Assembly (NCBI GenBank): GCA_965153455.1
Contig: OZ234493.1
Location: 19,148,213-19,212,212 of the forward strand
Source: Sphagnum compactum
Taxonomy: Eukaryota
DNA: 64,000 nt
Direction: 5' to 3'
Made by a program: the position numbers and the translations under genes. Under the pieces are notes generated by a model. The model was not told where the DNA came from and did not search any database. It saw nothing but the letters and a program-made list of their open reading frames with translations. Below, piece by piece: positions 16,001 through 59,746 of this stretch. Each line of letters begins with the position of its first letter. The first letter of the stretch is position 1.

Positions 16001-16658
16001 TACATGCAATTTTCTTCAGTTCAAATATATTTTTTAAATTTTTAAAATTTTTGTGTAGATTTTGGAAAACCTTTCATAATGAAGTTTAAATAATTTCATT
16101 TGGACATAATATGAGAAGGATATTACTAATTAAATTTGACTTTTAGAAAAGGTTTAATTGCATCTCAATTTAAAACTAAGGTGCAAATAAAACATTTAAC
16201 CCATATGTTTTGTCTTTGAATCTATGTTTGAAATATATTTGAATTTTCAATTATGACATCACTGATATTATAATGTCTCGCATACCTTAGGTCTGAAAAT
16301 TACGAAATTAATTCCATTATATCCTAATTGACAATATTTTTCAAAAAATTTAGAATACGCCCTAATTCCTTTGAAATTTTTACTTAAATATTGATTTATT
16401 TTTAATGAGACAAAATAAATATCCACTAATTTATACAATGGTTGTGGAAACAACACAAAATTAAGCCAAATCACCCCTAATGTTTGTCATAAGCTTTCCA
16501 AAGATACCAAGAACATGGTCTAAAGCACAACAATTTGGGAGCTCTCAAGTCTCAACATGACAAACAAACAAATTACATTCTTTTGAATAGCTACATCTTT
16601 AGGGTGAGGGCAAAAACAATTAGTGCACAACTACAATCCTTTTTTTCCTTAGCAAGGG

Positions 16659-16860
16659 GGGCCAAGGCAAATTGACCCTGACATTCTGATCATGGTTAAA
16701 AAACCCCATAATTTATAGATTTGGATTAAGGACCTTAATTTAGTATATGGAGATGATATTTATAAATATTTAGAGTATTTATAAATAGTTTAAATGGGTT
16801 TTGGGGTTTTTTTTGTTTTTACCATAATCCCAATGTGAGGGTCAATTCGCCTCCGCCAAG
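16659..16860. mobile_element. MITE-like element (about 200 bp), degraded copy of the element at 41707-41908
   Basis: Ends GGCCAAGGCAAATTGACCC ... GGGTCAATTCGCC form an inverted repeat. The interior (TTATAGATTTGGA..ATGATATTT..AATATTTAGA..TTTAAATGGG..TTTTACCAT..TCCCAATGTG) is shared with the 41.7-kb copy. Confidence 0.7.
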
Positions 16861-19800
16861 AAAGGGAGGATGGTGAGAGGAATGTGAGAAAATAATTATT
16901 ATAAACAATCATGTTTTTCTTTTCCTAGTAGGGAAAGGATGGAGAGAAGGGAAAGGGCATTGTCATCAATGACATTCCTTTTTGTCCTTTTCTTAGGGGG
17001 GGGGAGAAACATTTTCCCCATGCCCACATTTCATATGTCCCAATCAATGTTTTTTAATGTGGCGAATTTTCATCATTTTTTGAAAAAAAATGTGGCCAAC
17101 AACAACAACGCAATCGATTTTATTTTTTTAAATGGCCTAAAATTCGCAAAATTTCAGACAATTTTTTTTTTTTAATTTGCCAAATTTCTACCATAGGCTA
17201 TAGCACTTGTAGTCACATTAATGAAGGATTTTTGAAAAAATCCACAATGAGTTCTCTTGTGGAGCGATGGCAAAATATTGGCATTTATGATTGCCAACTT
17301 AGCAAAATCGAAAAACTCAAAAATAAAATTAAATCATCAATCCCAATACCATGGCATCACTAAGAAAATCATTTTAAAAAAGTTATGGCTGAAAAAAAGG
17401 ATATTTTTGATATTTTGTGTAAATTCAAAAAATGGAAAAAAAATGGGGAAAAAAACACCAAAGTTTCAAAACCATAATTTTAAAATAAAAAATGCATGAG
17501 ATTCCTAGTAAAAGTGGGGAGGTGGACATTGTTGTTGATGCTTTGCCGTTTTTCCTATTTTATTTTTTTAAAATCTTTTTCTTCATTTTTTAATTTTGGG
17601 CATTGTGATGTAACTAGTCCAACTCTGATTTTTCATCTTCTTCTAAATGGGAGGGTGTCAAGGAAAAAAATCCTCTTTAGTGTTTTTTTCTTCATTCATT
17701 TTTGTGATGTAGTTATAACGACAATCATTTGTAAGACAATTTAACTAAATTTTGCTATAAACACAATTTATGAAGATAAAAAAGTTTAAGCATGGATGTT
17801 TAAACTTTTTGTGGATCCTTCACATTTTGTGTTAAATCAAGCCTTAGGGAAGAACAATCCTAAAATAATTGGCTCTCATGAGGTAAAGTCAAGGCAAACC
17901 ATTTTCTTAAAAATGCGCTCCCTTAAGGCTTTCCCATGGTTAAAACACATCTACTACACAATGTTCTAAATTCGAAAAGTTCCCATTTAAGGAGAGGACC
18001 ATTTTAAAAACTCAACAAGGAAATTTTCATGCTTGTAAATACATTGTGAAAACAACAATAGCGTTTTAAGCTATATGGTAGAACCCAACAAAAACAATGG
18101 ATTTTTTTATCAAAATATTTTTTTTAATTTAATAATTAAAACCCAAAAAATCATAGTAGACAATGGAATGCATGTAAAGCAAAGGTGAATTGTATGCATA
18201 CAAGATTGAAATTCACACAACCTCTAGATGTAAAAAAAAATAGCAAATCCCTTGACCTTGAAATGTGATCATTCAATGTATAATTGTATGGCTTGAATGC
18301 AATATTCATGCGAATGTCCTTTTCCTTTGTTTGATTCTTCATTTGTGCAATAATGTTTGACAATCATGGATGGATGAAATTCATCCATATTCATCTACAT
18401 TCATCCTTGCCCACCTACCATTGAATTCACATCCATTACAAATATGTACATGAAGAATATATGTGTTTTGTCCATACATTCTTTTCAATGGATGTTATAA
18501 GATATTTATTTTTCATTCCTTACAACATTGAATGCTTGCATGGTAACCCCATGCATTCTATGAAAATGCACTCCAAAAAGACAACCTCTTAGAGCTAAGG
18601 ACGGTAGTTTGGGGCCTAGGGGTGAAATTTAAAGAATGCTTGGCATACAAGGCATTACTCTCAATAAAGAAAAAAGGTTCATTTCTTCATTTTTCATCAC
18701 GTGGCATCTTTTTCAACCTCCTATCTTGGTGATGTTTATATGAATTGAAGTTGTAATTGACAATAATTTTGAATCTCTAATTCGCCACAAGACAGTGCAA
18801 AGAAATGTATGGTTCAAGAAAATACTTTTAAAAGAATGCATTACACAAGATTGTAATGCATTAGCACTGACAAGGGGGGGCAAGGGGGGGTGGAAAGGGG
18901 GGGGGTTTAATTTGGTTTATAATGGGCAAATATTTCAAAGGGAAAACATGTTTGGTGCTTTATGCATGTGATGATTTTAAACATTTCAAATATCATAATG
19001 GAATGTAAATTTATATGTGGGAATAAACCCTCCCATCTTTGGAACTTAAATAATCATTCAATGAAATAAATATGCTATTTTAAAATAGTGATGAAAATTT
19101 TAATCATATTTCTAAAATTGTTAGTCATTGGAAAATATTGAATTCTACTCTAAGCTCTTGGTTAATTATGAACTTGTTCTATTCATAAAGATTAGTGAGA
19201 TTGAATTGAATCCTACACCCCCAACACAAGTAAACACATAGGTTATGTAGGTAGGGAAGTAGGTTGGTTGGTTGTGGGTAAGTTTATTGTAGGTAAATAG
19301 GTAGCTAACGGGTTGGTTTTGGGTAAGCATAATGTAGGTAGGTAGGTTGTTGATAGGTAGGTAGTTAAGTAAATACATAGGTTGTGGATAGGTAGCAACT
19401 AGTTAGCTAGGTAATTAGAAGGTAGGTTGTGGATTGCTAGGTAGGTAGGTTGATTGGTTGTGGATAGGGCATAGATTTAAATAGGTATAGGTTGGCATGT
19501 ATGAAAATATTAATCACTTATCTATTTACCTACCTCTATATTTGTTATGTAATTTCCTACTTGTACACACACACATAATGCACAAAAATGTGAAATAAAC
19601 ATGTTCATTTCATTGTTGTGAGGTCTTTCAATGCATTGATTAAAGACTTGGTGTGTGTTTTCTTCTAGTGGTCTTGGTGAGGATAACTCCATTAATCAAA
19701 ACCTTCATGTTTTCTTCCCCATTGTCATGGTTTTTTGACCTCATATTCATTCCAACAAAAGGTGACCATGTACACCAAGCGATTTCATTGGATTATGAGT

Positions 19801-20874
19801 GAATTCATTGATTATAGTGAATAAGACCTAGTGGGGAAGTAGTGAATTCACTGGTCTAGTAAATGGGGACTAATAAATGGTTATTTATCCAAGTTTTATA
19901 AAAACAAATTTAAAAACTTGTATCCTTGATTGAGACATGTTCTGAAAGTAACAACTATCTTGCTAATTCAACCCCACCTCGCCCCAAAATTATTGTTTAA
20001 AAAATTATTATTATTATTAAAAAATGTCATCAATTCTAAAACAAACATTCATAATCATAGGACCAATTAGGCCAAAAAATACAAATACAAATAAAAAAAC
20101 CTTACTAACTAGTTGGAATTGGAACCTGGAAAAATCAGATTTTGGGGTGGTTTTGACTTAGGTCCAATTATAGCTAGAGGCCATTCTCAATTTTAGTTTT
20201 GAAAAAAAAATGCACAATTTGTGATTGATGGTTTGGATAATTGGTAACCAAACTAGGACCCATAATCAAAATTGACCCAAAAACTAAAACCGACCAACTC
20301 TGGTTCAAAGTTCAAATATTTTAAGCTTTATTTTTTTGAAGGAGATATTCTCAAATGTCCCCCAAGTGTCAATGAAAAAATAATGCATATATATGTTTAG
20401 GGTGTCAATAATACAAAGCAAATACATATTTGTTTACCAGGGTGAATTAACACCCAATTACACCACCTAGGGTAATTTCACGTTGTGGTGATGCTAACAA
20501 TGATTAGAGGCCACCAATCTTACCATTGAAACCAATTCCTTGTAATTTTATGACTATACACACAAAATTCCATTTGTGTATTATAATTTTATAATTTTTT
20601 TTAAAAACCAAATGGAATAGTTATGAATGGTTCCTACAAATCCTTATTTTCCCAATAAAAGGTAAAACAAAAAAATCATGAAGATTGGGTTAGGAAGGAA
20701 AAATCAATTGAATTTGTTTACGTGCGAAGGTGAATGACATAGGCTTACCCTATGCTATCCTATTATCAAATAATGTTTTATATTTGTATTGCCACTACAA
20801 AACCTTTGAAAAATGATATAATTAGTACCATTGGAAAGCTTTCAATGTGTATGGTGCAACCAATCATTTTTTTT

Positions 20875-21550
20875 TCAATTTTATAATGTAACTACATTGG
20901 CAACCATCCATAAAAGGATTTAGCCACATTTGGCTAACTTTTTTTAGAATCTTGCTACTTTTTAGCTACTTCTAGGGGCACACAATCTAAACGTGGTGAA
21001 CAACACCTTATCCCCTATTTTTTGGTGAATGTTTTGAAAACCAAAAAAAACTCACTGAACACCTCGCAAGTCATTTTTAGATTTTGCATTGGTGCGAAAT
21101 TTTGCAGCAAAAAAAATGTTGGGTGCAACTTGTTGGTTTTAGAATGTTGGAGCCAAGGTCCAAAAGTTATTGAATATGGAGTATTATTTTAGCCACATTT
21201 AGCTAAATCCTCAAGTGGATTATTTCGACTTTGGGGGAAACATGAAATTTTGTTTTTAGGATAACATTGAAATGAAACAATGTTTTATTTTATGGTGAAT
21301 TTTCATGAATTTTGAACTGAAAAATATGATTTCGACCTATACAAAACATTTTTTGATGACAAAAATGGCCCTAATTAGCCAAATTATGAGGAAGTTTTTT
21401 TTTTCAAAATTGCCAAATTTTTATCATAAGTTCTAATAGGTAGCCAAGGATAAGGACGGATTATAGTTTTCTTTAATTTTCAAATCTAATAGGTAGCCGG
21501 ATTTGGCTAAATTATTTAAAAATTTATCACCACCCTAGTTACATCACAAA
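20875..21550. repeat. Fragments of an AT-rich interspersed repeat family (also at about 17040-17330, 17690-17765 and 41370-41590)
   Basis: Recurrent motifs GATTTAGCCA(C/A)ATTTGGCTA, TAGGTAGCCAA and TTTGTGATGTAG or its reverse complement appear at several loci in both orientations. Confidence 0.55.
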
Positions 21551-24500
21551 TTTCATTAAGAAAAAAACCCTATATGAAGGTGTGATTTCAAAACGAGTAG
21601 GTTGGCATATATGGGTTGGGGCCTTTAAAATACAGAGCCCAAAATTACAATCGCAAAGTAAGTTTGCCAGATCACAATGGTAATTACTAAATACAACCTT
21701 TAAGAATGGGTAGCTTAATGGTGTGGGATTAAGGACAAAGGTTTTTTAGGGTTTTTTTGTTGCAGCTGAAATCACAATTGGTCATAGGAAGATTTATAAC
21801 AAACTAGCGGGTGGTTTAATGACCCATTTTCAGGGTTTGCATAATCCACCTACTAAAAGCATTTGGCATTTCAAGGCCTATAATAGGTATTGCAAAGTTG
21901 TTTTTGCGTAACAAATTAAATTGCAAGCTTTTATTAGTTGATCAAAGTCAATTCCTTTTCTTTTTGGATTATCATTGCAAAAAATGATGATGATGGATGG
22001 TTAGTGGTCTCGGTGTTGTTGTGTATGTTTGTGCAAGATGGCGAATAGGGAGCCTCACAACAACCTTCCTAAGAGTAGGTGTGGCGGAGGATTTTAGAGT
22101 GAACATATAGTTGTTAATGATCCACCAATTAATGTCTCCTTTAAACCTCACACCATGCTTCTGAACAACTAGTTGAATAGACTAGTGAACCACAATTAAG
22201 GAGGAGGGTCGATCAATGATTATATCCTTTCCCACAAATGGATTGCTTGACATTGATAAATAGCAGTGCATTTCGAGGACGCCAAGCAACATTGTTAGCA
22301 CCAATGGCTTGGAAGTGACCTTGGTCGAATGTAGTGAAACTTCTAAAGGCTCATTTGAAATGGTTTGGTTTACCCCAAACACTTGATTTAATATGGTTGA
22401 CGGGAAGGAGAAAATTGTGGTTCGATCTCTTAAGGCTCAAACTTTGGAAATGAGCCTATCTCCTAAAACTCCTTAGCCTATAAAGATAGATTGCACGCAA
22501 TTCCAATTGGATCTACTCAAAGAGCCATTGCTTAGATGGCTGTAAAAGCCTATAGAAGACCAAAGCTTGCCACAATTGGTGAAGTTTTTACCGTATAAAC
22601 AAAAAATGGCAATAAGTGCATTTCAAAACATTTTGAACAAAGTCAATAATATGTAGAATTTGTTGTCCATCTTCGAAAGTTGCTTGCATTACAAATGTTT
22701 TATTCCTTACATATAAGGTAACTATTAAGTTGGACATCGATCTACACTTCTTAATTGGTGTTGATTGGTCCTTACTTTTTAGAAGAACATACATGTCTAC
22801 TAGGTCTAAAGCTTTTTATAAAATGAAAGACCCTTTGCTTTTGGGCATTGATTAAATGTTGAAACATGTGTAGTTTGCCTAGGTCCCATTACGGTATATG
22901 TTGATGTTAAAAAAATTTGGACTTGGACATACCAAGTGTGATTGTGTTAGTAAAATGTTAGAGAAGCCATTACATATGAGCATCAAATTGGTTAGATAAT
23001 GTTCCTATATAACAACTTAGGAATATCCAAACTTGTCATTATTACCCTGTCATGGTATGCACAATGTGATCTAGTAGTTGAAGTTATAGACACATGAATA
23101 AGGGATGATTGATTTTCCTCAAGCAAATTCACTTGGCTCCATCTAGGTCATTTGGAGACCTATGAGGTAGAGGGGGGATATTCAAATTGTATACATGGTA
23201 GACCTTCCAAGACAATTGATGCCATGGTAGCTGGAAGCCTATGCCCATTAAATAGACTAGTATGGGACCTTGCACTTGCTTGTGATGGAGGTTGCAGGTA
23301 ATAGTTTGGGGCAAAATGGAGTCTCTGATAATTTGCAACATCCGATACCAATGTCAAGTAACTCAAGTTGTCAAGGACAACCTAGTACTAATACTAGTGA
23401 AGGCAAATGTCCAAACTAATCTTGATGCCCAATTTTTTGCTTTTGTAACTTTCAACATACTACGAAAGGTTGAATTATATTTCCTTCCAAAAAATGGACT
23501 TTGTAAGGTTAGGTTTGGAATGATAGCTATAACCTGATGTTAGAGCCATCATTTGTGGATGGCAACGACTTTAGGCTTAATCTGATGGCAAATGGAGGGA
23601 TTTCTATAGGAGGACCTGTTGCTAATGGAGATTGTGCAAGCATGGGGACCCCATAATGTTAACATAGTCTTGGGGAAAGGGGATGGTTTCTAAGACAATA
23701 GGAGGAAGATGAATTGACAAAATCCAAAATTCGTGCCTTCTTGGATGAAAAGGCTTTGGAGTTCAAAAAGCTCCAGACACCACTTCATGAGGAACTTTAT
23801 GAAACCTCAATGAGGAGTTTATAAATTCCTGCATCAACTGGGCATGCAAAAAGTTTTATTTCACCTTTGAACCATGTTATTGCGAAATAACAAACGCACA
23901 ACCCCAGCAAATCATCGGGCAATCTCAGTGGAAGGTCAATTGGAATTAGCAACCAAAAGAGTGAGATGAATGTGAATTCTGGGAGCCCCAATGGAATTAG
24001 AGCACCTTCTCCTAGTGTCAATTGTTCCCCTCTTTTGGAAATTTCGTTAGTAAGGTTGAATGAATTGAAAGGTTTTATTAATGATACACAACAATCGCTA
24101 CCAAGCCCTAGTCTGAGTTATAGTCAACGTCAAAGGCTATGGAAATAGGAGCGTGAGCATGAGCTTAGAATGAAGCAAGAGGAGAAACAAAAACAATTGG
24201 TTAAACAAGGTTATCCAATGTCTCCACCCAACTCAAAGGGGCTTCAATGACCTATTAGTCGTCTGGCTACTACTTCCCAAATTTAGCAACTTCATCTCAT
24301 TTAAGGATTTGATTTGATACTCTATTTGTAGTCTTCCCCCAATTCTAGTCCATGGTGATGGGTTGCCCCTAGTTATGTACTTCCCTTCTATAGGGTGCAA
24401 GGTCTTTCTTTCCCTATGTCACTATTTTTTTTTCTTTCTTTGTGTCTTTTTATATTTGTGATCTCTTGTATAACATGTTTAGACTCTCATTTGGAAAGCA

Positions 24501-27700: not shown

Positions 27701-28444
27701 CACCCATGGGCTCTACCGACCATAAAACATGACGCAAAATTTATCATGAACCAAATCTATATAGGTCATGAAGCATAGGAGTGAGAGGGATATTATGCCT
27801 ACTTTTAGGTGTAATAACCCTCCCACTTTTGGGTAGTACGCATAATATCCCTCCCATTTTCGAGGAGAGAATTTGATGCAATATAAGGTGCCTTCCAAAT
27901 GCATTAAATTTTTTCTCAGAGTGTTCTATGTAAATGTAAATGCCAAGGCTTACAAAACCACCAGGGTATATTAGAAAGAGGGTGGTAAACTCCTCATGAA
28001 TGTATATGCAAGAGGGTGACAAACTCATCATAAATGTAATGCAAAATTTGACAAAACCACCAAGGTATGGAAAGAAGGTGGCAAAGTTCTCATAAATGTA
28101 AATGCCAAGTGGTACAAAACCACCAAGGTATGAAAAGGTGTTCCCATCAAATATATAAATGCCAAGAAGTTTTGTGATAAGAAATAGGTCTCATGCATAA
28201 GTAGGTAGATAGGAAAATAATAACTATTAGGTAAGTAGATGGTTTATTTATATATATGTAAAGGTTGTTTTTACTACCTACTTATTAACAACGTGCTTAT
28301 GGGTTGTTAATAGGAAGGTAGGGGAAAAAAACAACTAAGGTAACCACCATGGTTAGCTAGGGAATTGAAACTCAACAAAAAAAATTTCCTAACCACTTAT
28401 CATTCATCTTTCATGGTGCACTGGTGGGTGTTGGTTCATTGTGG
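27701..28444. mobile_element. Non-autonomous DNA-transposon-like element whose right part is shared with 49747-50009
   Basis: 28180-28444 is colinear with 49747-50009 (TAGGTAAGTAGATGG..TTTTTACTACCTAC..AAGGTAACCACCATGGTTA..GGTGGGTG(T/C)TG..TTCA(T/C)TGTG). Internal repeats TAAATGTAAATGCCAAG..ACAAAACCACCA lie at 27930-28160. The left boundary is tentative. Confidence 0.5.
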
Positions 28445-32039: not shown

Positions 32040-35000
32040 TCAATTGGCAACAGATGAAGGTAATTATTTCAAATTGAAACACCTTAACAAATTAAGTTCC
32101 TTGAATGCATTAAATTGGCCTATAAACGTAAGTAATTCCTGCAAGCTCGTACAAATTAAGTTCACACAACTAAAACTTTTGGAGTGCATTTAATTGACCA
32201 ATGTACATGTAAGTAATTTTTGCAAGTTGAAACGTTCACACAAATCAAGATTTTCAAGTGCACTCAATGACCAATAGATGAAAATGGTTTTTTCAAGTTA
32301 GAACACTTTGACAATTGAAGCTTTTGGAATGTACCCAATTGACTAATAGATGAAAATACTTATTTCAAGTTGGAACACCTTGACAAATGAAACACTTTGA
32401 ATGTATTCAATTTGCCCATAGATGAATGTACCTTTTTCACAATGTTTTCAAGTTGGAGAAGTCTTATAAATAAAACTTTTGTAGTGCATTCAATTCATCA
32501 ATTAATGAACGTAGTTTTTTCAAGTTGTCACACCTTGACAAATTAAGTTTTTGGAGTACATTGATTCGCCAATAGATGAACGTAGTTCTTTCAAGTCGTC
32601 ACACCTTGACAAATTAAGTTTTTGGAGTACATTGATTCGCCAATAGATGAACGTAGTTCTTTCAAGTTGTCACACCTTGACAAATTAAGTTTTTGGAGTA
32701 CATTGATTCGCCAATAGATGAGTGTAGTTCTTTCAACTCGGAACACCCTTTCAAATTAAACTCTTGGAGTAGATTGATTGGACAATAGATGAAGGTAGTT
32801 TTTTCAACTCGGAACACCCTAACAAATCAAGCTTTTGAAATGCATTAAATTGGCCAATAAATGAAGGTAGTTCTTTCAAATTGGACCACCATTGTAAATC
32901 AAGCTCTTGGAGTGCATTCAATTGGTCACTAGATGAAAGTAGTTCTTTCAACTCGGAACACCATTGTAAATCAAGCTCTTGGTGTGCATTTAATTGGCCA
33001 ATAGATGAAGGTAGTTCTTTCAAGTTGGAACACCCTGGCAAATCAAACTTTTGGAGTGCATTCAATTGGCCAATAGATGAGGGTAGTTCTTTCAAGTTGG
33101 AACACCTTTGCAAATGAAGCTTTTGGAGTGCATTCAATTGGCCAATAGATGAAGGTAGTTCTTTCAAGTTGGACCACCATGATAAATGAAGCTCTTGGAG
33201 TGCATTCAATTGGCCAATAGATGAAGGTAGTTCTTTCAAGTTGGACCACCATGATAAATGAAGCTCTTGGAATGCATTCAATTGGCCAATAGATGAAGGT
33301 AGTTCTTTCAAGTTGAAACACCCTTGCAAATGAAGCTCTTGGAGTCCATTCAATTGGCCAATAGATGAAAGTAGTTCCTTAAACTCGGAACACCCTTTCA
33401 AATCAAGCTTTTGAAGTGCATTCAATTGGCCAATAGATGAAGGTAGTTCTTTCAAGTTGGAACACCATGATAAATCAAGCTCTTGGAGTGCATTCAATTG
33501 ACCAATATATGAAGGTAGTTCTTTCAAGTTGAAACACCTTTGTAAATGAAGCTTTTGGACTACATTCAGTTGGCCAATAGATGAAGGTAGTTCTTTCAAC
33601 TCAAAACACCATGATAAATCAAGCTCTTGGAGTGCATTCAATTGGCCAATAGATGAAGGTAGTTCTTTCAAGTTGAAACACCCTTGCAAATCAAGCTTTT
33701 GGAGTGCACTCAAATGGCCAAGAGATGAAGGTAGTTCTTCCAAGTTGTAACACCATTGCAAATGAAGCTCTTGGAGTGCATTCAATTGGCCAATAGATGA
33801 AGGTAGTTTTTTCAACTTGGAACACCTTTTCAAATTAAGCTTTTGGAGTGCATTCAATTGGGCAATAGATGAAGGTAGTTCTTTCAAGTTGGAACACTCT
33901 TGCAAATCAAGCTCTTGGAGTGCATTCAATTGGCCAATAGATGAAGGTAGTTCTTTCAAGCTGAAACACCCTTGCAAATCAAGCTTTGGGAGTGCATTCA
34001 ATTGGCCAATAGATGAAGGTAGTTCTTTCAAGTTGAAACACCCTTGCAAATCAAGCTTTTGGAGTGCATTCAATTGGGCAATAGATGAAGGTAGTTCTTT
34101 CAAGCTGAAACACCTTTGCAAATCAAGCTCTTGGAGTGCATTCAATTGGCTAATAGATGAAGGTAGTTCTTCCAAGTTGGAACACCATGATAAATGAAGC
34201 TCTTGAAGTGCATGTAATTGGCCAATAGATGAAGGTAGTTCTTTTAAGTTAAAACACAATGTTAAATGAAGCTCTTGGAGTGCATTCAATTGGCTAATAG
34301 ATGAAGGTAGTTGTTTTAAGTTTGAACACTCTGACAAATTTAGCTTGTGGAGTGCATTCAATTGGCCAATAGATGAAGGTAGTTCTTCCAAGTTGTAACA
34401 CCATTGCAAATGAAGCTTTTGGAGTGCATTCAATTGGCCAATAGATGAAGGTAGTTCTTCCAAGTTGTAACACCATTGCAAATGAAGCTTTTGGAGTGCA
34501 TTCAATTGGCCAATAGATGAAGGTAGTTCTTTCAACTCGGAACACCTTTTCAAATCAAGCTTTTGGAGTGCATTCAATTGGCCAATAGATGAAGGTAGTT
34601 CTTTCAAGTTGGAACACCATGACAAATCAAGCTTTTGGAGTGCATTCAGTTGGCCAATAGATGAAGGTAATTCTTTCAACTCGGAACACCATTGTAAGTC
34701 AAGCTTTTGGAGTGCATTAAGTTGCCCTATAGATACAGGTAGTTTTTTCAAGTTGGAACACCTTTGCAAATCAAGCTTTGGGAGTGCATTCAATTGGGCA
34801 ATAGATGAAGGTAGTTCTTTCAAGTTGAAACACCCTTGCAAATCAAGCTTTTGGAGTGCATTCAATTGGCCAATAGATGAAGGTAGTTCTTTTAAGTTGG
34901 AACACCCTTGCAAATGAAGCTTTTGGAGTGCATTCAATTGGCCAATAGATGAAGGTAGTTCTTTCAAGTTGGAACACCCTTGTAAATGAAGTTGTTGGAG

Positions 35001-35720
35001 TGCATGCAATTGGCCAATAGATGAAGGTAGTTCTTTCAAGTTCGAACACTCTGACAAATTAAGCTTGTGAAGTGCATTCAATTAGCCAATAGATGAAGGT
35101 AGTTCTTTCAAGTTGGAACACCATGATAAATCAAGCTCTTGGAGTGCATTCAATTGGCCAATGGATGAAGGTAGTTCTTTCGAGTAAAAGCACCATGACA
35201 AATCAAACCTTGGGAGTGCATTCAATTGGCCAATAAATGAAGGTAGTTCTTCCAAGTCGTAACATCGTTGCAAATCAAGCTTTGGGAGTGCATTCTTTTG
35301 GCTGATAAATGAAGGTAATTCTTTCAAGTTGGAACACCATGATAAATGAAGCTTTTGGAGTGCATTTAATTGGCCAATAAATGAAGGTAGTTTTTTCAAC
35401 TTGGAACACCCTCGCAAATCAAGCTCTTGGAGTGCATTCAAGTGGCCAGTACATGAAGGTAGTTTTTTCAAGTTGGAACACCATGACAAATCAAGCTTTT
35501 GGAGTGCATTCAATTCGCCAATGGATGAAGGTATTTCTTTCAAGCTAGAACACGATGATAAATGAAGCTCTTGGAGTGCATTCAATTGGCCAATAGATGA
35601 AGGTAGTTTTTTCAACTTGGAACACCCTCGCAAATCAAGCTCTTGGAGTGCATTCAATTGGCCAATAGATGAAGGTATTTTTTCCAAACTTTGGCATTGT
35701 GCCAAGTCAAGTACTTGTAA
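32040..35720 (-). repeat. 72-bp tandem array encoding 24-aa LRRs (41 coding units plus about 10 decayed 3' units)
   Basis: Consensus LQxLxLxxCxxLKELPSSIGQLNA; the plus-strand core GGAGTGCATTCAATTGGCCAATAGATGAAGGTAGTTCTTTCAAG recurs every 72 bp. Units at 32511-32795 have a 71-bp period. Confidence 0.97.
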
Positions 35721-38700
35721 TTATAAACAATAAAATAAATTAGTTGGTAATTTTTGAATCATGCATTTTTTGAGGCACAACCACTTCACGTTATTCAAAT
35801 TTCGCCCTTGGATGAAATTTTCGACTATAGTTGGTGAAGCTTCTGTTAGGTCAACCAACCTAAGGTTGCGAAATCCCTTTGAGCCGATTTGGGACAATGT
35901 AGGCAAATTGACACATTTTTTCAATGACATGCCTTCTAAATTTTCCACCACCTATCACATGAAATGAAAAGAAAAAAGATTATCTATATTAGAAAATTTT
36001 CATCCTAATCCCAATTTTTATCAGAAAAACATTCATTTATAAAATCAAGATTCAAAATTAAAACAGTTGGTCTTGGACTTTTTAAAAAATCATAAAAAAT
36101 CAAAATAAAATTATAGGATTGAAATAGTATAGTGACAACCTCATCCTTTTGTAAATATATATTTGATTTATTTGATTTCCATATAAATCGATTCATAATT
36201 GAAAGTTCCATTGCAATATTTCGACCCATGTCTTGTAATTGTTCATGTATGTACAAGATTCCATCTTCTGCCCACTCAATTAAAGATCTATGTTGTAAAT
36301 TTTGTAATTCAAACTTTGGGTGTTCATAATCTCCACTCCACACTCGACCAATTGTACTTATTTTTAAACCACCAAAAAAACAGGCAATATCAAAAAACAT
36401 GTTTTGATTTTGTTTATCCAAGTCCTCATATGATATCTTTAAAACACTCCAAAGCTCTTCATTATCATTGCCCCCTGTCAAACTTTTCCCACTTTTCAAT
36501 TTGCTCAATGCACCTTCCCACATTTCTAATTCTTTAGTATTGCACAAAAAAGAACCCAATACTTTAAGACTTAAAGGGAGTCCCCCACAAGCTTTTATAA
36601 TCTTCATACATATATCGTTGAAATCCTTTGTTGGAACATGATTTGCATTACCAAATGCATGGAACATAAAGAGTTTTCTTGCTTCCTCTTCCTCAAAAGA
36701 TTTCATGACCATTTTTCCATCTTCACTTACATGAGATTTTAGAATTTGCCAATTTCGACAATTCACAAGTACTCTGCTTTTAGAAGTTGCATTCTTGGCA
36801 CCCTTTTCAATGAGAAGTTGCAAGGATGTAAGGTTCTCCGCCTTGCCAACATCATCCACCACCACTAACACTTTCTTCGATATCATACATTGTCTAATTT
36901 TGTCAAGGGCTTCATTCACATTTTCATCTTCGCATAACCTTTTGCCACACAAATCATGTAGGAGTTGTTTAATGACATCATTAATATCATCCTTTGATTT
37001 CACATCCTCCAAAAAACTAGATTTGTCATATTCGTTGTGGAACAAATGATAGAATTTTTTGCTCAAAGTGGTTTTTCCAATCCCACCCATTCCAACCAAA
37101 CCAACAATAGATTGCTTTTGTAACAGGATGTTTATGTCTTGTGCTTTGTCGATCAACGCCACCTCATGACATGGCAAACTTGGAAGCAATATATTTTTCT
37201 GTCAAAATTCACAAAATATAGGTCATTTATATGTTATCTTTCTTATTTGATAACCAATATATATGACATTGCATATGCGATACACATCAAGTGTGCTATG
37301 ACCTAATGTGTTTCAAAGTACATGAACATATATGAAGTCAAAAGATTTAGATTTGATGTTTTTACTTCCATACATGTTCTCAAACATTTTAACAATATAG
37401 AATAACTTGGATGATCTCTGTTTGGTGGCTTGCAAATTGTCAAATGATTAGCATCCTCAACTATGTAATGGTTGTTGTTTGACAACTGAATAGCTGAGGC
37501 ATGTGGCACTAAAATTCCCTGCATGTGCAAAAGATTAAATTAATGGAATTCATTGACTTCTTTGTTCACTTATGCTTTAACTTATAAACCAAATGGTGGT
37601 GGAAATTATAATTTAATAACTATTGATGTTTGAGTAATAATGAAATATTGTGTACAAGTAATTTCCTTCAACCTTTTGGCAAAAAACCTTATATAAATAC
37701 ATCACAAAGTTATTGGTTTTTAATCTCATGAATCTTACATGCTTTAATGATGTTATGATTTTCCTTGTAATATTTATATGGAATTGATTTGATGAAGGGA
37801 AAATTTAAATTTATTTTTTGATGTTTGAAATCAATCAAATTTCATTTCCATCAATAGTTTTTCATGTAACAAAGTTCATAAAACACATGACCCATTCACC
37901 ACATTAATATATGTAGAAGTATTGAGTACATGATCCCACACAAGTTTTGACAATACGAAAAATGTTCAATTAACGAACCTAGTTGGATAACTTTCAATGT
38001 GATGAAATGAAATCTTACCCAATTTTTGTCGAGTGGTAATCCTTCGCTAAATGCATAAATGTTGAGGTCTTCATGAATGGCATTTTTAAAATCCGTTGAA
38101 AGGTGCTCCATTTGTGAGTTGAAAGATTCTAAATTTTTTAAAAACCCAGATTGGGTTGCATACTTGTTCAATGTGTTGATTCGTTGATGTTTCCAAATGA
38201 AATAATTTGATAGAGATTGGGTGCCACCAACATGTGGTACACTATAAAATACGACACCTTTAACATTGTTCAAAAATGTCTTACAACATTTGTGTACTTT
38301 ATCATCCAAACCATTTTTTGGCCGTTGATATACATGTTTGTGAGCTTCAACCACCAAGCTTTTGAGTACAAGACCTCCAAAACTATAAGCAACTAATGTC
38401 ACCGGTCCATCCCAAAGGGATTGATAACTACAAAATATTCAACAATGCACCAAAATTCCATTATCAACATTGTATTAGAATGACAAATTTATCCTATTAT
38501 ACTTGGGGGCAATTTTCCAATTCACACATGACCTAAGCCATAAGTTCATAATTGATTTGCTTGTCATATGTTGTTTATGGAATCCATTAATACACCTAAA
38601 AAATGTGACAACCATGTTTTGGTAAAACAATTATTATGCACAAGTATGTAGGTGTTTACATTCTTGTGTTAATGTACAACTCATCTTCTATGTGTTACGT

Positions 38701-39447
38701 TGGAAATATAGTGGAAATTTTAAAAAATTAAATTAAAAAACTATATATATACCTTTTTTTTAAAATAATTTTTTCGCAATGAAATGGATGAAAACTTTCT
38801 ACACATGTATCAATTTAATTTAATTTAATTCAATTGCATTACCCTAGATAAAGCTTAAAAAAACGCGAACTCAAAATTGCCATCAAAACCAAACTAGTTG
38901 TACCATGAACTTATAATATGAACATAGACTTTGTTATTATCTTCAAACAAGAACATTTGCCTTAGCCCCAATTTATCTTCTTCTACATGAATCTAACAAT
39001 TCAAGTAAATTAAAACTTGTTGGTGTGTATCACATGAACAATTAACTTGTGCAAAACATGTAAGAAATTCTAAAGATATAAACAATTATCATTAATGTAC
39101 ACAAGGAGAAGTTATTAATGTGTCCATAAATAGAGGAGATGGTCACACCTTGAATTTGTAATCAAACTTTGAACAAGGTTTTTGCCGATTCCAGTCACGT
39201 CATTGTGAACACTTGCCACAATGTTAGAATCATAGGACAATGATAAAATTTGAACATTGTTGTTCAAGTCTTCGGGTAGCCACTTTTCCGGCCAACATAT
39301 GCACTCTTCTCTATTGTTAGTCGGGCATGTTGTCCATGTTTCCTTCCATTCATCATTTGTGCCAAAAGCAATCCCATGAAAAAAGATGATCGTCAAGTTT
39401 GGATTATTGGAATTGCAAGAGGGATTTAAATCATGCACTAGATATTC
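32751..39447 (-). CDS. alpha/beta-hydrolase-NB-ARC-LRR immune receptor (HNL-class NLR); two in-frame stops in the LRR exon, so truncated or a young pseudogene
   Basis: Phase-compatible GT-AG exons are 39447-39149, 38427-38019, 37518-37366, 37198-36140 and 35951-32751; the first coding exon lies upstream and is uncertain. Hydrolase motifs: FFHG, WLPEDL, AYSFGG, FYSVPHVG, NHLTICKP (SERAC1/PGAP1-like). NB-ARC motifs: GMGGIGKTT, LVVVDDV, GGLPLSL, FFDIACFF, IHEQLQDMG. There are 41 LRRs of 24 aa, with TAA stops at 35723-35721 and 35084-35082. Confidence 0.92.
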
Positions 39448-40412: not shown

Positions 40413-40779
40413 TGGGAAACCCAAGGAAAAACTGTGCAAAGAAAGCTCATCATAAGGTAATGAAAAGCACCACATTGCTGTGCCATCCAGAGCTTGAAGG
40501 AGCATTTTCAGCGGGGACCAAAGGTGTCTCAATCGCAGCAGGTATCTGCATAACATCTTTACATGGGAAATCCCAAGAAAAAACAGTGCAAAGAAAGCTC
40601 ATGATAAGATCAAGAAGAAGCACCACATGGCTGTGACATCCAGAGCTTGAAGGAGCATTTTCAGCGGGGACCAAAGGTGTCTCAATCCCAGCAGGGATCC
40701 GCACAACATCTCTCTTTCTTTCCGGGGGCCCTTGTGAAAGATCAACTCCTTTTCCCTTGAGGCCATCTGAATTTCCCAT
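40413..40779 (-). other. Candidate first coding exon of the NLR (MGNSDGLKGKG...) containing a roughly 153-bp tandem duplication
   Basis: ATG at 40779. DVxxIPAxIETPLVPAENAPSSSG is encoded twice in frame, on the same strand as and about 1 kb upstream of the first hydrolase exon. The splice donor was not identified. Confidence 0.4.
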
Positions 40780-47844: not shown

Positions 47845-49746
47845 GCGCATAATTCTCATACATTGCCGGGAATGAAAGAATTGCTCAAGAACTGTGAAAC
47901 AGTCCGGTAACTGCATCAAGAAAATGCTTCAAGTGATTGATTGAGCTGGCTTAGAGTTCTCTGCATGGTGAGGCTTGAAGCTGTACAGAACTGCATTTGT
48001 TGATGTGCTGGAAGATCAATAGATTGTTCCACCTGCATCTAACTATAAATAAAACAGTGCTAGTCACACTCCATCTACTGACTCATCTTGAGATGTGGGT
48101 GATGCAAGGAGTTACATACTTCAATTGTTTGTCGAATTGCAGCTGAAATTCTTCCAGGGCTAAAGCATGATTGGGTGCCTCAAAGTACTGTTCCAAATGA
48201 CTCTTTTCCATACTAAAATCACCATGTACATACATGATAGCAACTATCTTATCTTTTTAGTTTCATGTTAGATTTGGATATGATCACATCAAGTACTGAA
48301 TTATGATTGGAGTTGTCCTTCTCAATTGGTGCTACTCATGTTTTCCTCCTGGCATGGATCTACTCATGCACACTGATTGATCAGAAACTTGTTGATCAGA
48401 AGCTTTTCATATAACCTTGTTACCAAATTGTCCACAATGGCTTGAAGTTGAAAATTTGAGCTTGAAGCTTGAAATTGAGCAAAATCTTGGGTTTTGGAAG
48501 AAGAATTTCGAGATATAATTCTTAACAAGACAGCCCCTTAATTTATTTTTCCAGCTCTTCAATCACATATATAATTCACTTCCTCCCCATCAGTGGTATT
48601 TTTATTTTTGTTTTTTTATTTTTTTTCAAATTTCTAATGCTCAAGATGGATCTATCTATGAAGGAAGGTAGTTTGTTTGTGTTGTTTTGTTTTGCTTGCC
48701 ACATTGAGATCCTCCAAACACTTTATGCACAACACCACTTGGAACTTCCTTCTGTATTTGGTGAGCAAAGACAATTAAGAAAAAAATGCACCTCACTCCT
48801 ATCAACATACATGCTATATTTAAAATCAATGCCAAAGAAAACTTCTAATTTTTAATTCTAAAAGTATTATCGATAGTATTAAGGTATGATTTTCAGTTTT
48901 TTCTAGTATGTCACTCTTATTTTCAATCAAATATTGAGAATTATTCTAATCGTATATATATACATGTGTGCGTGTGAGTGTTTGTTTTGAAATTTTAAAA
49001 TTGAGAATAATATAAATTTTGACATGGAAACATTGAACTTGTCTAAAGGATACGATATATTAGTTTATGTAAAATGTCATTAATAATAGGAAAGATGCTG
49101 ATCAAATAAATATATAATATCTTTCAACACTTAAAAAAAATCTTGTATATATGTATACACCAGTGGTTAAAAGTAACCTTTTGATATCATAAAAAAATTC
49201 TCGAAGAGGGGGGGTGCCTATGGTGGTTGTATTGCAAACTTTTCAGACCAACAAGACATGCTCCTGAGATCTATGGTTGGGAATAAAGAATTGGTGCAAT
49301 ATAAAGAAGAGTTGTGACCCACAAATTAAGGACAAAGGCAAAGAACTCGTACCACTTGAAATACAAAGACAAGTAAGAGACTTCGATTTTGTCATGACCA
49401 TTGAAAAGGTACAATTTTTACATACAATTCTCTGCAATTCAAAAATAAAAAAATAATTTGATAACATTTTCTTATCTACCCAAAAGCTAAGGGACAAAAA
49501 TGAACTTTGCCAAGGATTGATTAAAAAATCCAAAATGTTATTTAGGACTTCACAAAGCTTGTGTGAATTCTAATAATTTTCCTAAAACTTGCATATGAAT
49601 CGGGAAAGGGAAATTACATCATTAAGCCTATGTCTAGTTTGGACCCAGATTGAAATTAAGATAGTTTGATATATGAAAATAGTCAAGGGAAATGCATAAA
49701 CCTCAACCGAGTTAATATTTGGTTTCACTTGGGTATCCAATTTTGT

Positions 49747-50009
49747 AAGAAATAGTTTTAATATATAAGTAGATAGGTAAGAAAATAGGTAATTATTAGG
49801 TAAGTAGATGGGTTTATACATAGGTAAGGGCTGTTTTTACTACCTACCTACTAGCAACTTGCTTGTGGGTTGTTAGTAAGTATGTAGTGTAAGAAAGCAA
49901 CCAAGGTAACCACCATGGTTAACTAAGGAACTGAAATGCAACAGAAAACTGTTTCTTGACCACTTCTCATCCATCCTTCCCGGTGCCTTGGTGGGTGCTG
50001 TTCACTGTG
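49747..50009. mobile_element. Second copy of the right end of the 27701-28444 element
   Basis: About 260 bp colinear with 28180-28444; similarity stops sharply after TTCACTGTG. Confidence 0.65.
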
Positions 50010-53000
50010 ATACAATTAGAGGGACCAATTGCAATAAGGAGTTGGCTAATGCCTTCCCAAATGAACATGCTATAGTGAGGCACTATTACATCTCATGTCT
50101 CCCTTCAAAAAAATATGCATACCAAAAACCTTAACATTTATTCTTTCGAAAATAACATTATCCCAATATGGTATAATGTGCCTAACCTTTTATCATCTAT
50201 GTAGTTGATTGTCACCTGTAGTTGTGATAGGTTTACCAACAATAGGTAGGATTACCACATATTAAACATCTCAAACTATTGGATTATGTCGTAATGAAAT
50301 TATTTTTGAAATCGTTGATTTTTTGAGAAATTCATAGCTCAAAGTGTCAAAATTTTGAAATTGCCCAATGGAAACCTAAGGGTTGTAGGCCTTGGTTGTC
50401 GACTTTGTCATTAAAGTCGAACTTGTTTTGCTTGTTCGATTATATTTCTTTGAGCTTTGATGGAGAATAGGATGTTGTGAGTGCAAATGTTTGGTGGATA
50501 TCATTGTGTTTTAAATCTCAAAATTTCTTTGAAAACATGTTTCACCAAAAACGATTCCTTTAAAACTCTTATTTGTCATCAACATAAAGCCTCCATGTAA
50601 CCTATTGGAATCCATTGGCTTTTGAAGTTTATAAGAATGAACTAAAAGGCACAAATAAAAGTCAACAAACATCAAAGCAAATGCAAACATGAATCAATAA
50701 ACATAACATATGGGTGTTAGGTATATGGATGAAGAATGATTACCATTTTCATTCACGACAAAAAAAATAAAAATATTATATTGTATATCTAAATATATTT
50801 TAATAAATATAACAATAATTTGGCACACCACTTTTGAGTCTAATTCCAATGATGATGATAACATTGGAACTAATATAAAATAAATGCTTATGCAATCCTC
50901 TAATCATTTCATGTTACCAAAATTTATTTTATTTTTTAATATACTTTGTATGGAATGAAAAGGTATTTTTTAGAATTTTTATTTTCTTAGAATTATATGT
51001 TTCCAACGCCATAGTTAGAGATGATGAAAGTGATGAACATATTTTCAATACCTTGTACACCGATTTGCATTTCATTTTTTCTTCAATTTAATTTAAATAC
51101 AATTCAATTAAACTTGAATTTAATTGATTAAAATTTGAGTTGAATTAAGTTGAATTTAAATTATAGTCAATATATATGAATTTCATTCAATGTATTTAAA
51201 TTCAATTCAATTCAAATTGCATTCAATGTCATTCAATATTTTTATTCAAATGAAACTTATTTTTTCATCATTTTGTTGTCAATAACAATATGTAACACCA
51301 TGAAGCCCAAGTTAAGGTTGGTGGCAATTATTAAAGAGTTATCTTTTTCTTACCTTGTCATTAGTTGAATATCCATAACAATTCAATCACAATATCAAGA
51401 ATGACATATGGGTGCAAACACAATCTAAGAAGCCATGGCTACAAGGTTAAAGTCCTTTTCAAGGATTGCATTTGACACATAACATTTTTATGTTGGTCAA
51501 CTTTTTTAATTTCTGCATTTTTCATACTCAATTTATAGTTGTGTTTTGAATATAATTAATTTTTATTATATTATGGTCTATATTATTTTATATATAATGT
51601 ATTCATGCTTTAACACAAAAATAATACAAAAATGAATGACTTTTGTTACAAACACATTTTCAAAATTCAAAATTTTCAAGGTCAAAAACAAATTTCAAAC
51701 AAATATGTTAGGTGTAGTCACACTAATAGGAGTCATAGCAAATGTAACTAACGCATATTTAGTTCTTCACGTTTAAAAGTGATAATTTAAATTGGTGTTG
51801 AAAATATCGAATTTTTTACTATAATAAAGTTCATAATATATCATTGGAACATATAAATTAATTTGAAAAACATCCAATGAATAAAAAACTTTCGAAAACA
51901 TTCATTAAACATTGTAATGTGTGTTTTTTAATACTAAAATGATTTACAAATAGACTTCAAAACTTTCGAAAACTACATATATTTTGAAATCTCTTACATA
52001 AACATTGACATAATAATATGAAAAAAAATTTAATTTAAAAAAAATTATTTTTGAAGGCTTTTAAAAAAAATTCTAAAAAAATTCCCCCACATGCAATTCC
52101 AAAAGCATGCAAGTGCGACTCATGTTATCCTATTTGCACCATGTTCAAATATCTTTTTGAATGAATTTTACCAATTTGAAATTCTTTTGTTTTTTTATAA
52201 TCATTAATGTTAAGATCCTTTTCAATTAAAAAAAAGAATGGTGCACATTTAATAAAGAAAAAAAAATCAAACAAAAAACTATTGTAATAGTTGTTTTGAA
52301 CATGCAAAAAGATTCTTGAAACATTATCAATTTGCATCAAGTTTTGAAAAATGAAAATTTATAAGCAATAATATTTAAAAAAAAATTAAAAACAAACATC
52401 CAATTTATTATGCTTCTCTTGTGATTTTTCAAAAATATAAAATTTAAATTTTACACATTATGACACACCTTGTGACTTCTTTTATTGTGTTTGCACCCAT
52501 ATACAAAATCATTACATTCTTACTTACAATGTGCGTGCAACTATTTTTTGATTAACAATTGAAAATGAAACACCAAGAAAGAAAAAGGAAAAATGTACTA
52601 CAATCTCTCTACTCTCTCTACACCCAACCTTAGGGTCAGACAAGTTGCTACATACTTTACGATCCACCCCTATGAGCTATTTAAAAATAACTTCAACTCA
52701 CTCATAAATAAGAGGTGAACATACCATACCAATGAGATGAATATGACATGCAATCCAAAAGTTATGTGCATGAAGCACAAATATCTAAAATTAGAGTAAC
52801 TTGGTATAAGTAACTTACGTGTAGGAGGAGAGGCCCTTCAGTGATTTGAGATCTGTGCCCGAGGCCGGTAGGCCAAGGGAACAAAAAGTCGAAAATCACA
52901 GAAGGGCCTGTACTCAGGTCCTTTTCCTAAGTAAAGCACTGCCTGAATTTTTTCACTTTTTAGAAATAGTGACAGGCTGGCTGGTACTTTCCGCTCGTCA

Positions 53001-56485: not shown

Positions 56486-59746
<3,261 letters not shown>

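Follow-up and report, generated by a model that had tools for sequence, protein, structure and literature searches.

The stretch analysed here, called the window, is 64,000 nucleotides of the peat moss Sphagnum compactum (assembly GCA_965153455.1, contig OZ234493.1, positions 19,148,213 to 19,212,212). Its minus strand carries a gene of the nucleotide-binding leucine-rich repeat receptor (NLR) type that ends in an array of 40 leucine-rich repeat (LRR) units of 72 bp each, followed by a damaged 41st. The locus is, by its sequence, a Sphagnum alpha/beta-hydrolase–NB-ARC–LRR gene with an NB-ARC domain of the TIR-NLR (TNL) type. Taken as a whole, the observations are probably best explained by a member of this large gene family that has a homogenised array with a diversified face and is a broken copy. 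In-register unequal exchange, conversion or slippage among the units would keep the scaffold uniform and change unit number and order. Selection would keep or favour diversity at the ligand-facing positions, as described for fungal NLRs with high internal conservation (HIC) of their repeats. Two CAA-to-TAA changes, one before the array and one in unit 8, would block translation of the array.

Tandem Repeats Finder (TRF) reports a 72-bp tandem array at 32176-35684 with 48.6 copies and 84% matches. An anchor search of both strands places 40 copies at exact 72-bp spacing on the minus strand, from 35678 down to 32870, together with two degenerate copies, and finds no further LRR unit copies on the plus strand or in the rest of the window. 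When cut in register from 35720, every one of units 0-39 translates into a 24-residue LRR, and the units abut without intervening sequence or introns. Unit 40 proper lies at 32840-32769; the arrays of Sphagnum homologues end in the same manner, for example in the tail of P0003. The array, its stops and its fringe are laid out as follows.

35721-35723, minus strand: first in-frame TAA, immediately before unit 0, where homologues have Gln (sequence, limits of open reading frames (ORFs), homologues)
32841-35720, minus strand: 40 LRR units (0-39) of 72 bp each in one register, consensus LQKLDLQWCSNLKELPSSIGQLNA (anchor search, Pfam LRR families, AlphaFold2 (AF2) solenoid for units 9-40)
35082-35084, minus strand: second in-frame TAA, in unit 8 at scaffold codon 21, GQL being read as G*L (sequence, ORF limits)
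32751-32840, minus strand: unit 40, with a 1-bp deletion in its QLNA part, the frame reaching a TGA at 32753-32751 (sequence, homologue comparison)
32505-32837, minus strand: repeat with a 71-bp period, 4.7 copies and 90% matches, an amplified frameshifted terminal unit (TRF, sequence)
32060-32504, minus strand, limits approximate: decayed units with stops in all frames, the 3' fringe of the array (TRF, sequence)

The original prediction, made from the letters alone, described 32751-35720 as a 41-unit array. The array is real, with 40 exact units and a 41st with a 1-bp deletion, but this interval is not one reading frame. All six of the example motifs given there are present, and the residue alphabets listed for the variable positions agree with the counts: K21/E16 at unit position 3, D23/H14/N3 at position 5, Q19/S13/K3/R2 at position 7, W16/G11/R7/E3 at position 8, S25/F10/Y4 at position 10 and N26/E5/S4/K3 at position 11. 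The statement that the scaffold is almost invariant even at the DNA level was an overstatement. Among the 40 units, the 15-residue scaffold string LKELPSSIGQLNALQ is found unchanged 11 times, codons 15-24 are identical as a 30-nt string in 15/40 units, and the mean pairwise identity between units is 0.86 for nucleotides and 0.73 for amino acids. Distinct units number 38 out of 40, the only identical pairs being 17 with 18 and 23 with 28. There is no higher-order period or repeated multi-unit block in the array, and mean differences between units are flat across lags 1-12.

Variation along the unit is concentrated at codons 3, 5, 7 and 8 and next at codons 10 and 11. Diversity was computed on units 0-39, with unit 40 dropped for its deletion and the cell containing the stop codon skipped. 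Nonsynonymous diversity (pN) at codons 3, 5, 7 and 8 is 0.32, and synonymous diversity (pS) in the scaffold is 0.136 (0.103 if the TTA/TTG polymorphism at Leu6 is excluded). The ratio of the former to scaffold pS is 2.35, with a bootstrap interval over units of 1.79-3.13 that excludes 1. Scaffold pN is 0.068, and scaffold pN/pS is 0.50 (bootstrap 0.37-0.67). Units 9-39 alone give the same picture. Variation spread evenly over the codons at a dN/dS of 1 or less is therefore not what the array displays, the beta face standing at 2.35 and the scaffold at 0.50. At the four beta-face codons, third positions differ in 0-2 of 40 units, and the first and second positions carry 2-4 common alleles. Because synonymous diversity is low (pS 0.10-0.14), the likeness of the units is more than constraint at the protein level.

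In LRR proteins, the side chains at positions 3, 5 and 7 point outward on the concave face. An AF2 model of a 776-residue piece (units 9-40, single sequence) is a regular solenoid with a mean pLDDT of 84.7 and a pTM of 0.66, in which a strand falls on unit positions 3-7 and a short helix on positions 17-21. Foldseek matches this model to the LRR proteins SHOC2, Leptospira LRR proteins and TLR7/8/9. The placing of the variable sites at the x positions of the beta strand, as originally proposed, is borne out by codon diversity together with the modelled strand at 3-7.

A plant NLR requires a single open reading frame that joins NB-ARC and LRR, and here two TAA codons interrupt it. Around the first, the window reads ...LPTNLFYCL*LQVLDLAQC, whereas Sphagnum homologues read ...LFYCLQLQVLDLAQC (CLQ joined to LQVLDL). 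Unit 8 reads ...SSIG*LNA at a codon that is CAA in 36/39 other units, and the stop-to-stop ORF listing breaks the array at 35082. Both stops are a single C-to-T change in CAA, which is the commonest codon type of the array; they lie within 640 bp, and about 771 codons are open upstream of the first. Therefore, a 41-unit protein cannot be made from the locus as assembled. The original prediction overlooked the TAAs at 35723-35721 and 35084-35082, and a 41-unit reading frame is absent in the assembly. A stop between NBS and LRR has likewise been reported for Physcomitrella PpC24, as far as PMC3991678 describes it. A non-standard code in which TAA is read as Gln was set aside, because the other exons of this land-plant NLR stay open with the standard code.

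Because the stops block translation of the array while the 771 upstream codons are open and the splice sites are plausible, the locus most likely represents a copy that was disabled recently, or else a truncated hydrolase–NB-ARC form. Inactivation, if any, is recent because the rest of the gene is intact. Within this explanation, the unusually long array (40-41 units) is no longer selected as a receptor. At 12 near-invariant scaffold positions, the window deviates from the family scaffold in 35/468 cases (7.5%) versus 188/4884 (3.8%) in the family (Fisher p=6e-4), a count that leaves out each protein's first unit and relies, for the family, on units extracted by motif, which biases the family value low. 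The window thereby ranks 40th of 43, with about twice the family mean.

The identity of the gene as a hydrolase–NB-ARC–LRR gene is assigned because of its Pfam matches, a six-exon model and homologues that pass the DUF676 cut-off. The model, obtained by tblastn with three homologues on the minus strand, has an intact ATG, open exons and junctions that are plausibly GT/AG.

40624-40779, minus strand: exon 1 (approximate), with the ATG start, MGNSDGLKGKG... (tblastn of the Sphagnum homologues P0003/P0002/P0007; translation, GT donor)
39151-39447, minus strand: exon 2 (approximate), N-terminal alpha/beta-hydrolase part (tblastn, translation)
38019-38429, minus strand: exon 3 (approximate), hydrolase core with AYSFGG, an A-x-S-x-G nucleophile-elbow-like motif (tblastn, weak DUF676 match)
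37366-37518, minus strand: exon 4 (approximate) (tblastn, translation)
36134-37201, minus strand: exon 5 (approximate), NB-ARC with the P-loop GMGGIGKTT and a Roq1-type winged helix (Pfam, tblastn)
35724-35951, minus strand: start of the last exon, an irregular N-terminal LRR/cap region to ...LPTNLFYCL (tblastn, alignment with the pre-array sequence of homologues)

The 398-residue ORF at 36005-37201 matches NB-ARC (E 8.9e-36) and WHD_ROQ1 (E 3.1e-12) in Pfam, and its translation contains GMGGIGKTT, LVVVDD and GGLPL. The C-terminal LRRs match Pfam LRR_14 (E 9.3e-112) and other LRR families. The exon-3 ORF reaches DUF676 (serine esterase) with E 7e-4 and 19.6 bits, under the cut-off of 20.3, and the full-length homologues P0003 and P0007, which are 85-89% identical on NB-ARC, score 24.1 and 22.4 bits, over the cut-off. 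[quoted passage not shown] The order alpha/beta-hydrolase, NB-ARC, LRR is that of the bryophyte hydrolase-NLRs (HNL or Hyd-NLR). The HNL class goes back to Xue et al. 2012 as cited in PMC4986451, and bryophyte hydrolase-NLRs, with Sphagnum ones named, have been surveyed by Chia et al. 2024 (PMC11218826). The passages of that survey on N-terminal domains and phylogeny make no mention of internal conservation of the LRR array or of hypervariable positions.

The gene belongs to a family within Sphagnum. A protein search with the NB-ARC exon gave 4062 matches, and among the best 120 of these the top 57 are all from Sphagnum (S. fallax, compactum, jensenii, tenellum, balticum and troendelagicum) at 48-91% identity, the best at 89-91%; Ceratodon and angiosperm TIR-NLRs come after them. 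The longest in-register chains of these 57 proteins have 0-24 units, versus 40-41 in the window, and no close Sphagnum relative was found among proteins of at least 1359 residues. The window's array therefore exceeds that of every annotated relative in the collection. A comparison of unit number and order among paralogues, as originally suggested, yields 3-24 units in the relatives' arrays and no shared order past the first unit: in the seven closest homologues, only unit 0 matches the window, and 0-3 beta-face haplotypes are in common. The relatives' arrays are annotated as ordinary single-exon arrays. Many gene models of the family lack the array, break off ahead of it or soon after its start, or end with the repeat read out of frame (ITYIYWPIECIP..., TTFIYWPIECTP...); P0008, P0012, P0014, P0020, P0033 and P0016 are among those truncated or out of frame. 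This suggests that frameshifts, truncations or annotation trouble are frequent in the family.

The variable positions of the window are also those of the family. In a set of 449 units from 42 proteins with at least 6 units each, extracted by motif and hence biased toward intact units, entropy at positions 3, 5, 7 and 8 is 2.9, 2.4, 3.2 and 3.1 bits, respectively. It is 1.6-2.2 bits at positions 10, 11, 13 and 17, 0.7-1.2 bits at positions 2, 14, 23 and 24, and at most 0.6 bits at the remaining 12 positions, which are the scaffold and the core leucines. Scaffold identity is 0.909 within and 0.860 between proteins, a difference that 0/1000 label shuffles reach, and there are clade-specific scaffold variants such as LQELPT... 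and ...QLTT.

Within-array recombination is plausible. Across the 40 units, the four beta-face positions combine into 26 haplotypes versus 31 +/- 1.7 with columns shuffled, and the eight variable positions into 34 versus 38.8 +/- 1.0. Combination of the positions is close to free, yet significantly below free combination. Residual associations link positions 7 and 8, positions 8 and 10, and the synonymous site at Leu6 with positions 3 and 8. Incompatible pairs of informative sites number 281/528, with a Hudson-Kaplan Rm of 22; these figures show saturation, not mechanism. At position 7, Gln and Ser are encoded by CAA and TCA with only one CCA intermediate, and copying explains this switch more easily. 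The frameshifted 71-bp terminal unit, which is non-coding in this frame, has been amplified 4.7-fold at the fringe of the array, so that a mutational copy-number process acts here independently of coding. The proposal of recombination-driven diversification is thus partly sustained: low pS, the higher scaffold identity within than between proteins, the amplified 71-bp unit and the differences in unit number and order among relatives agree with it, whereas the recombination test called for along with it, of the pairwise homoplasy index (PHI) type, is flat (p=0.74), and recurrent mutation under selection could also account for the pattern.

Several observations weigh against the explanation favoured here. 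The PHI-type test finds no distance effect (observed 0.661 versus permuted 0.639), and most hypervariable alleles are one nucleotide apart and could recur by mutation. A pN/pS ratio among repeats of a single array, such as the 2.35 given above, is crude, and its bootstrap treats units as if they had no shared ancestry. The scaffold C-S-x-L-x-E-L-P-S-S-I-G-x-L is also found in angiosperm TIR-NLRs, so that part of the scaffold uniformity is old structural constraint and not homogenisation. As for the broken state, scaffold deviations are only modestly in excess: three family proteins have more of them, and the family figure is biased low. Just two disabling changes are present, the 960-codon frame is otherwise perfect, and scaffold pN/pS is 0.5, so that any decay would be very recent and indistinguishable from a base-call error or a segregating null allele. 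The stops and the array length rest on one assembly. In the public runs X1, X4, X11 and X14, Logan contigs are about 100 bp, many of them multi-mapping and evidently from relatives and paralogues, and the runs with most overlap contain only 0.30-0.38 of the sampled words.

If the TAAs were consensus or base-call errors, or marked a null allele, the gene would be intact and encode a hydrolase–NB-ARC protein with about 41 LRRs. The 771 open upstream codons, the 40 units without an indel, the scaffold pN/pS of 0.5 and the origin of both stops by a single C-to-T change in the array's commonest codon type are all as expected from such a gene. However, modern long-read assemblies do not usually err by substitution, and two independent nonsense codons within 640 bp would have to be explained. 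With annotated family members of at most 24 units, none close among Sphagnum proteins of at least 1359 residues, and scaffold deviations about twice the family mean, an intact gene is unlikely. Rather unlikely, too, is that no special process is at work, and that an ancient LRR unit is constrained by purifying selection while its exposed positions drift, after a few recent duplications. The same scaffold in Ceratodon and angiosperm TIR-NLRs, a likeness of paralogue scaffolds (0.86) greater than NB-ARC identity (down to about 50%) and the flat PHI test all speak for it. Under this account, however, beta-face pN should not be 2.35 times synonymous diversity with an interval excluding 1, nor should synonymous sites of the scaffold be alike as well (pS 0.10-0.14). 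A few recent block duplications fit poorly with 38/40 distinct units and no blocks, and neither the near-free combination of haplotypes (26 versus 31 +/- 1.7 shuffled) nor the lack of unit collinearity with close relatives is in its favour.

The length of the array, or part of its content, may be an assembly artefact of a long tandem repeat. HIC arrays have been mis-assembled from short reads, according to the account in PMC12222747, and the window's array is 1.7 times that of the longest annotated relative. Collapse or spurious expansion usually leaves identical blocks, whereas here the exact 72-bp register runs through 2880 bp, 38 of the units are distinct and no multi-unit block recurs, which makes an artefact improbable. 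A speculative and quite improbable idea is that silent or truncated arrays such as this one are more than debris and form a germline reserve, from which conversion or unequal exchange copies LRR units into expressed paralogues. If it were true, the long array behind the stop would be maintained as a donor, and the Sphagnum hydrolase-NLR family, perhaps with TAO1-type arrays, would be a cassette-fed repertoire generator comparable to pseudo-V gene conversion. Hardly credible is a system like the lamprey variable lymphocyte receptors (VLRs) or like Ectocarpus, in which units are assembled or shuffled somatically or by exon choice. The resemblance is only formal, in that LRR units of uniform build have faces that vary. 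In the genome, the array is one unbroken stretch free of introns, no unit copies occur elsewhere in the 64-kb window on either strand, and the relatives are annotated as ordinary single-exon arrays.

Arrays of similar regularity are present outside the Sphagnum family. Ceratodon NLRs have 24-31 units with a 48-residue period and a unit identity of 0.55-0.60, and a liverwort (Calypogeia) NLR and Sphagnum kinase-NLRs contain near-identical 47-residue LRR pairs. Angiosperm TIR-NLRs found with the array as query have 15-29 in-register units with an internal identity of 0.67-0.75, being a subset chosen by likeness to the array; TNLs reached via the NB-ARC query have at most 4 units in register, at 0.22-0.38 identity. 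Examples of the former are P0134 (Eutrema), P0145 (Populus), P0147 (Eucalyptus) and P0140 (Camelina), with source names of the TAO1, RPV1-like, RPP1-like or SNC1-like kind; P0134, whose source name is TAO1, is 56% identical to the window array across 89% of the query. Like the window, they have 24-residue units, nearly the same scaffold (LxxLxLxxCSxLxELPSSIGxLxx), variation at positions 2, 3, 5, 7, 8 and 10, and the same NB-ARC type, to which the WHD_ROQ1 match of the window belongs. Unlike the window, they carry an N-terminal TIR instead of a hydrolase, and their arrays are shorter. The array pattern is not bryophyte-specific, which undoes the premise of a divide between bryophytes and angiosperms in this respect. 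We found no paper that treats angiosperm TIR-NLR repeats as HIC arrays.

Some proteins met in these searches have peculiar arrays of their own. In P0140, an SNC1-like TIR-NLR model of Camelina sativa, residues ~972-1667 form 29 in-register LRR units, of which about 12 consecutive 48-residue unit pairs are letter-for-letter identical (lag-2 identity 0.94); these pairs stem either from an expansion that is very recent or from an artefact in assembly or annotation. The Sphagnum kinase-type NLR models P0052 and P0114 have arrays of 7-13 near-identical 47-residue LRR pairs. In P0052, the array precedes the P-loop (GIVGMGGIGKTT, ~residue 1290), which is either an unusual domain order or the product of two fused gene models. 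P0164, P0167, P0178 and P0208 are ROCO-like LRR-GTPases, matched in Pfam by a Roc/Ras-type GTPase and by LRRs, whose in-register units number 17-35 and have a 48-residue period identity of 0.74-0.90; because of these arrays, high internal conservation of LRRs also extends outside NB-ARC proteins.

Among known systems, the closest are the fungal HIC NLRs, such as het-e/het-d/HNWD of Podospora, for which near-identical repeats with few hypervariable positions under diversifying selection, repeat number varying among family members and an inferred reshuffling of repeats are described in parts of PMC4986451, PMC12222747 and PMC13449251. The window shares with them the NLR architecture, the near-identical repeat sensor, the few hypervariable positions and the repeat number varying in the family. 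A Psim-like score of the window, computed with a consensus-distance formula of our own and not with T-REKS, is 0.82 for protein and 0.91 for DNA, whereas the HIC threshold is a repeat similarity coefficient (Psim) of at least 0.7 as given in PMC13449251. The hypervariable positions would lie on the binding face, as judged from the ratio of 2.35, the family entropy of 2.4-3.2 bits and the modelled strand. The fungal likeness that was originally suggested is upheld in that the window matches the high internal conservation type of NLR. It differs in having 24-residue LRRs rather than WD40/ANK/TPR, in the absence of repeat-induced point mutation (RIP) and in being a broken copy, and its internal identity (0.73 amino acid, 0.86 nucleotide) is below the 80-100% quoted for HNWD. 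According to section 12 of a 2026 survey, an enrichment of HIC repeats, LRRs among them, is seen throughout life in ATPase-containing proteins, and the HIC mechanism "apparently also occurs" in plants, a survey-level remark that the section gives without bryophyte or LRR detail (PMC13449251). We found no published account of bryophyte NLR LRR arrays with high internal conservation, although examples may be present in Fig. 8c and the supplementary tables of PMC13449251 or in the data sets of PMC11218826.

Many of the repeats of tomato Cf-2 are near-identical alternating 24-residue units. Like the window, Cf-2/Cf-5 are plant immune receptors with variable LRR copy number; unlike it, they are extracellular receptor-like proteins with plant-specific LRRs and no NB-ARC. 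Their copy number of 25-38 varies via recombination, as PMC10515242 relates citing Dixon et al. 1998. The candidate immune receptors of Ectocarpus, as presented in PMC3341825, have repeats under diversifying selection, high gene birth and death and repeat shuffling; there, every repeat has an exon to itself, and shuffling of these exons has been proposed as the route. The window departs from this arrangement, since its 40 units form one uninterrupted stretch. It also departs from the lamprey VLRs, being one contiguous array with no donor cassettes in 64 kb; with no units outside the array over that span, the likeness to lamprey VLRs drawn at the outset lends no support to a cassette or somatic system.

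The gene stands alone in its surroundings. No other NLR copy is present in the 64-kb window, tblastn matches being confined to 35.6-40.8 kb. Of the neighbouring ORFs, 2/10 have any Pfam match: an ORF at 58343-58795 (minus strand) matches dihydrouridine synthase (Dus, E 2.9e-09) and is a gene fragment, and one at 60663-61097 (plus strand) matches the PPR repeat (E 1.6e-16). The neighbours are ordinary plant genes and not an NLR cluster. Downstream of the NLR gene, a 63-bp tandem repeat occupies 28010-28137 (2 copies, 81% matches). AT-rich stretches at 14001-22000 and 48001-52000, with a GC content of 0.26-0.33, lie amid gene-like blocks at 0.40-0.45.

Work on fungi has established NLR sensors made of near-identical repeats whose faces are hypervariable, and for plants only the survey-level statement of PMC13449251 was found. 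The Sphagnum locus and its relatives provide a concrete LRR-based plant example of such sensors. They illustrate well an evolutionary regime that is known but barely documented for this repeat type and lineage. The locus itself is probably dead or truncated; what it offers is a lead to the family and a warning on how such arrays are annotated and assembled. A fixed scaffold with a few specificity positions is natural material for studying the origin of recognition surfaces and for receptor engineering. The regime appears to span peat moss, other bryophytes and the TAO1-like receptors of flowering plants.

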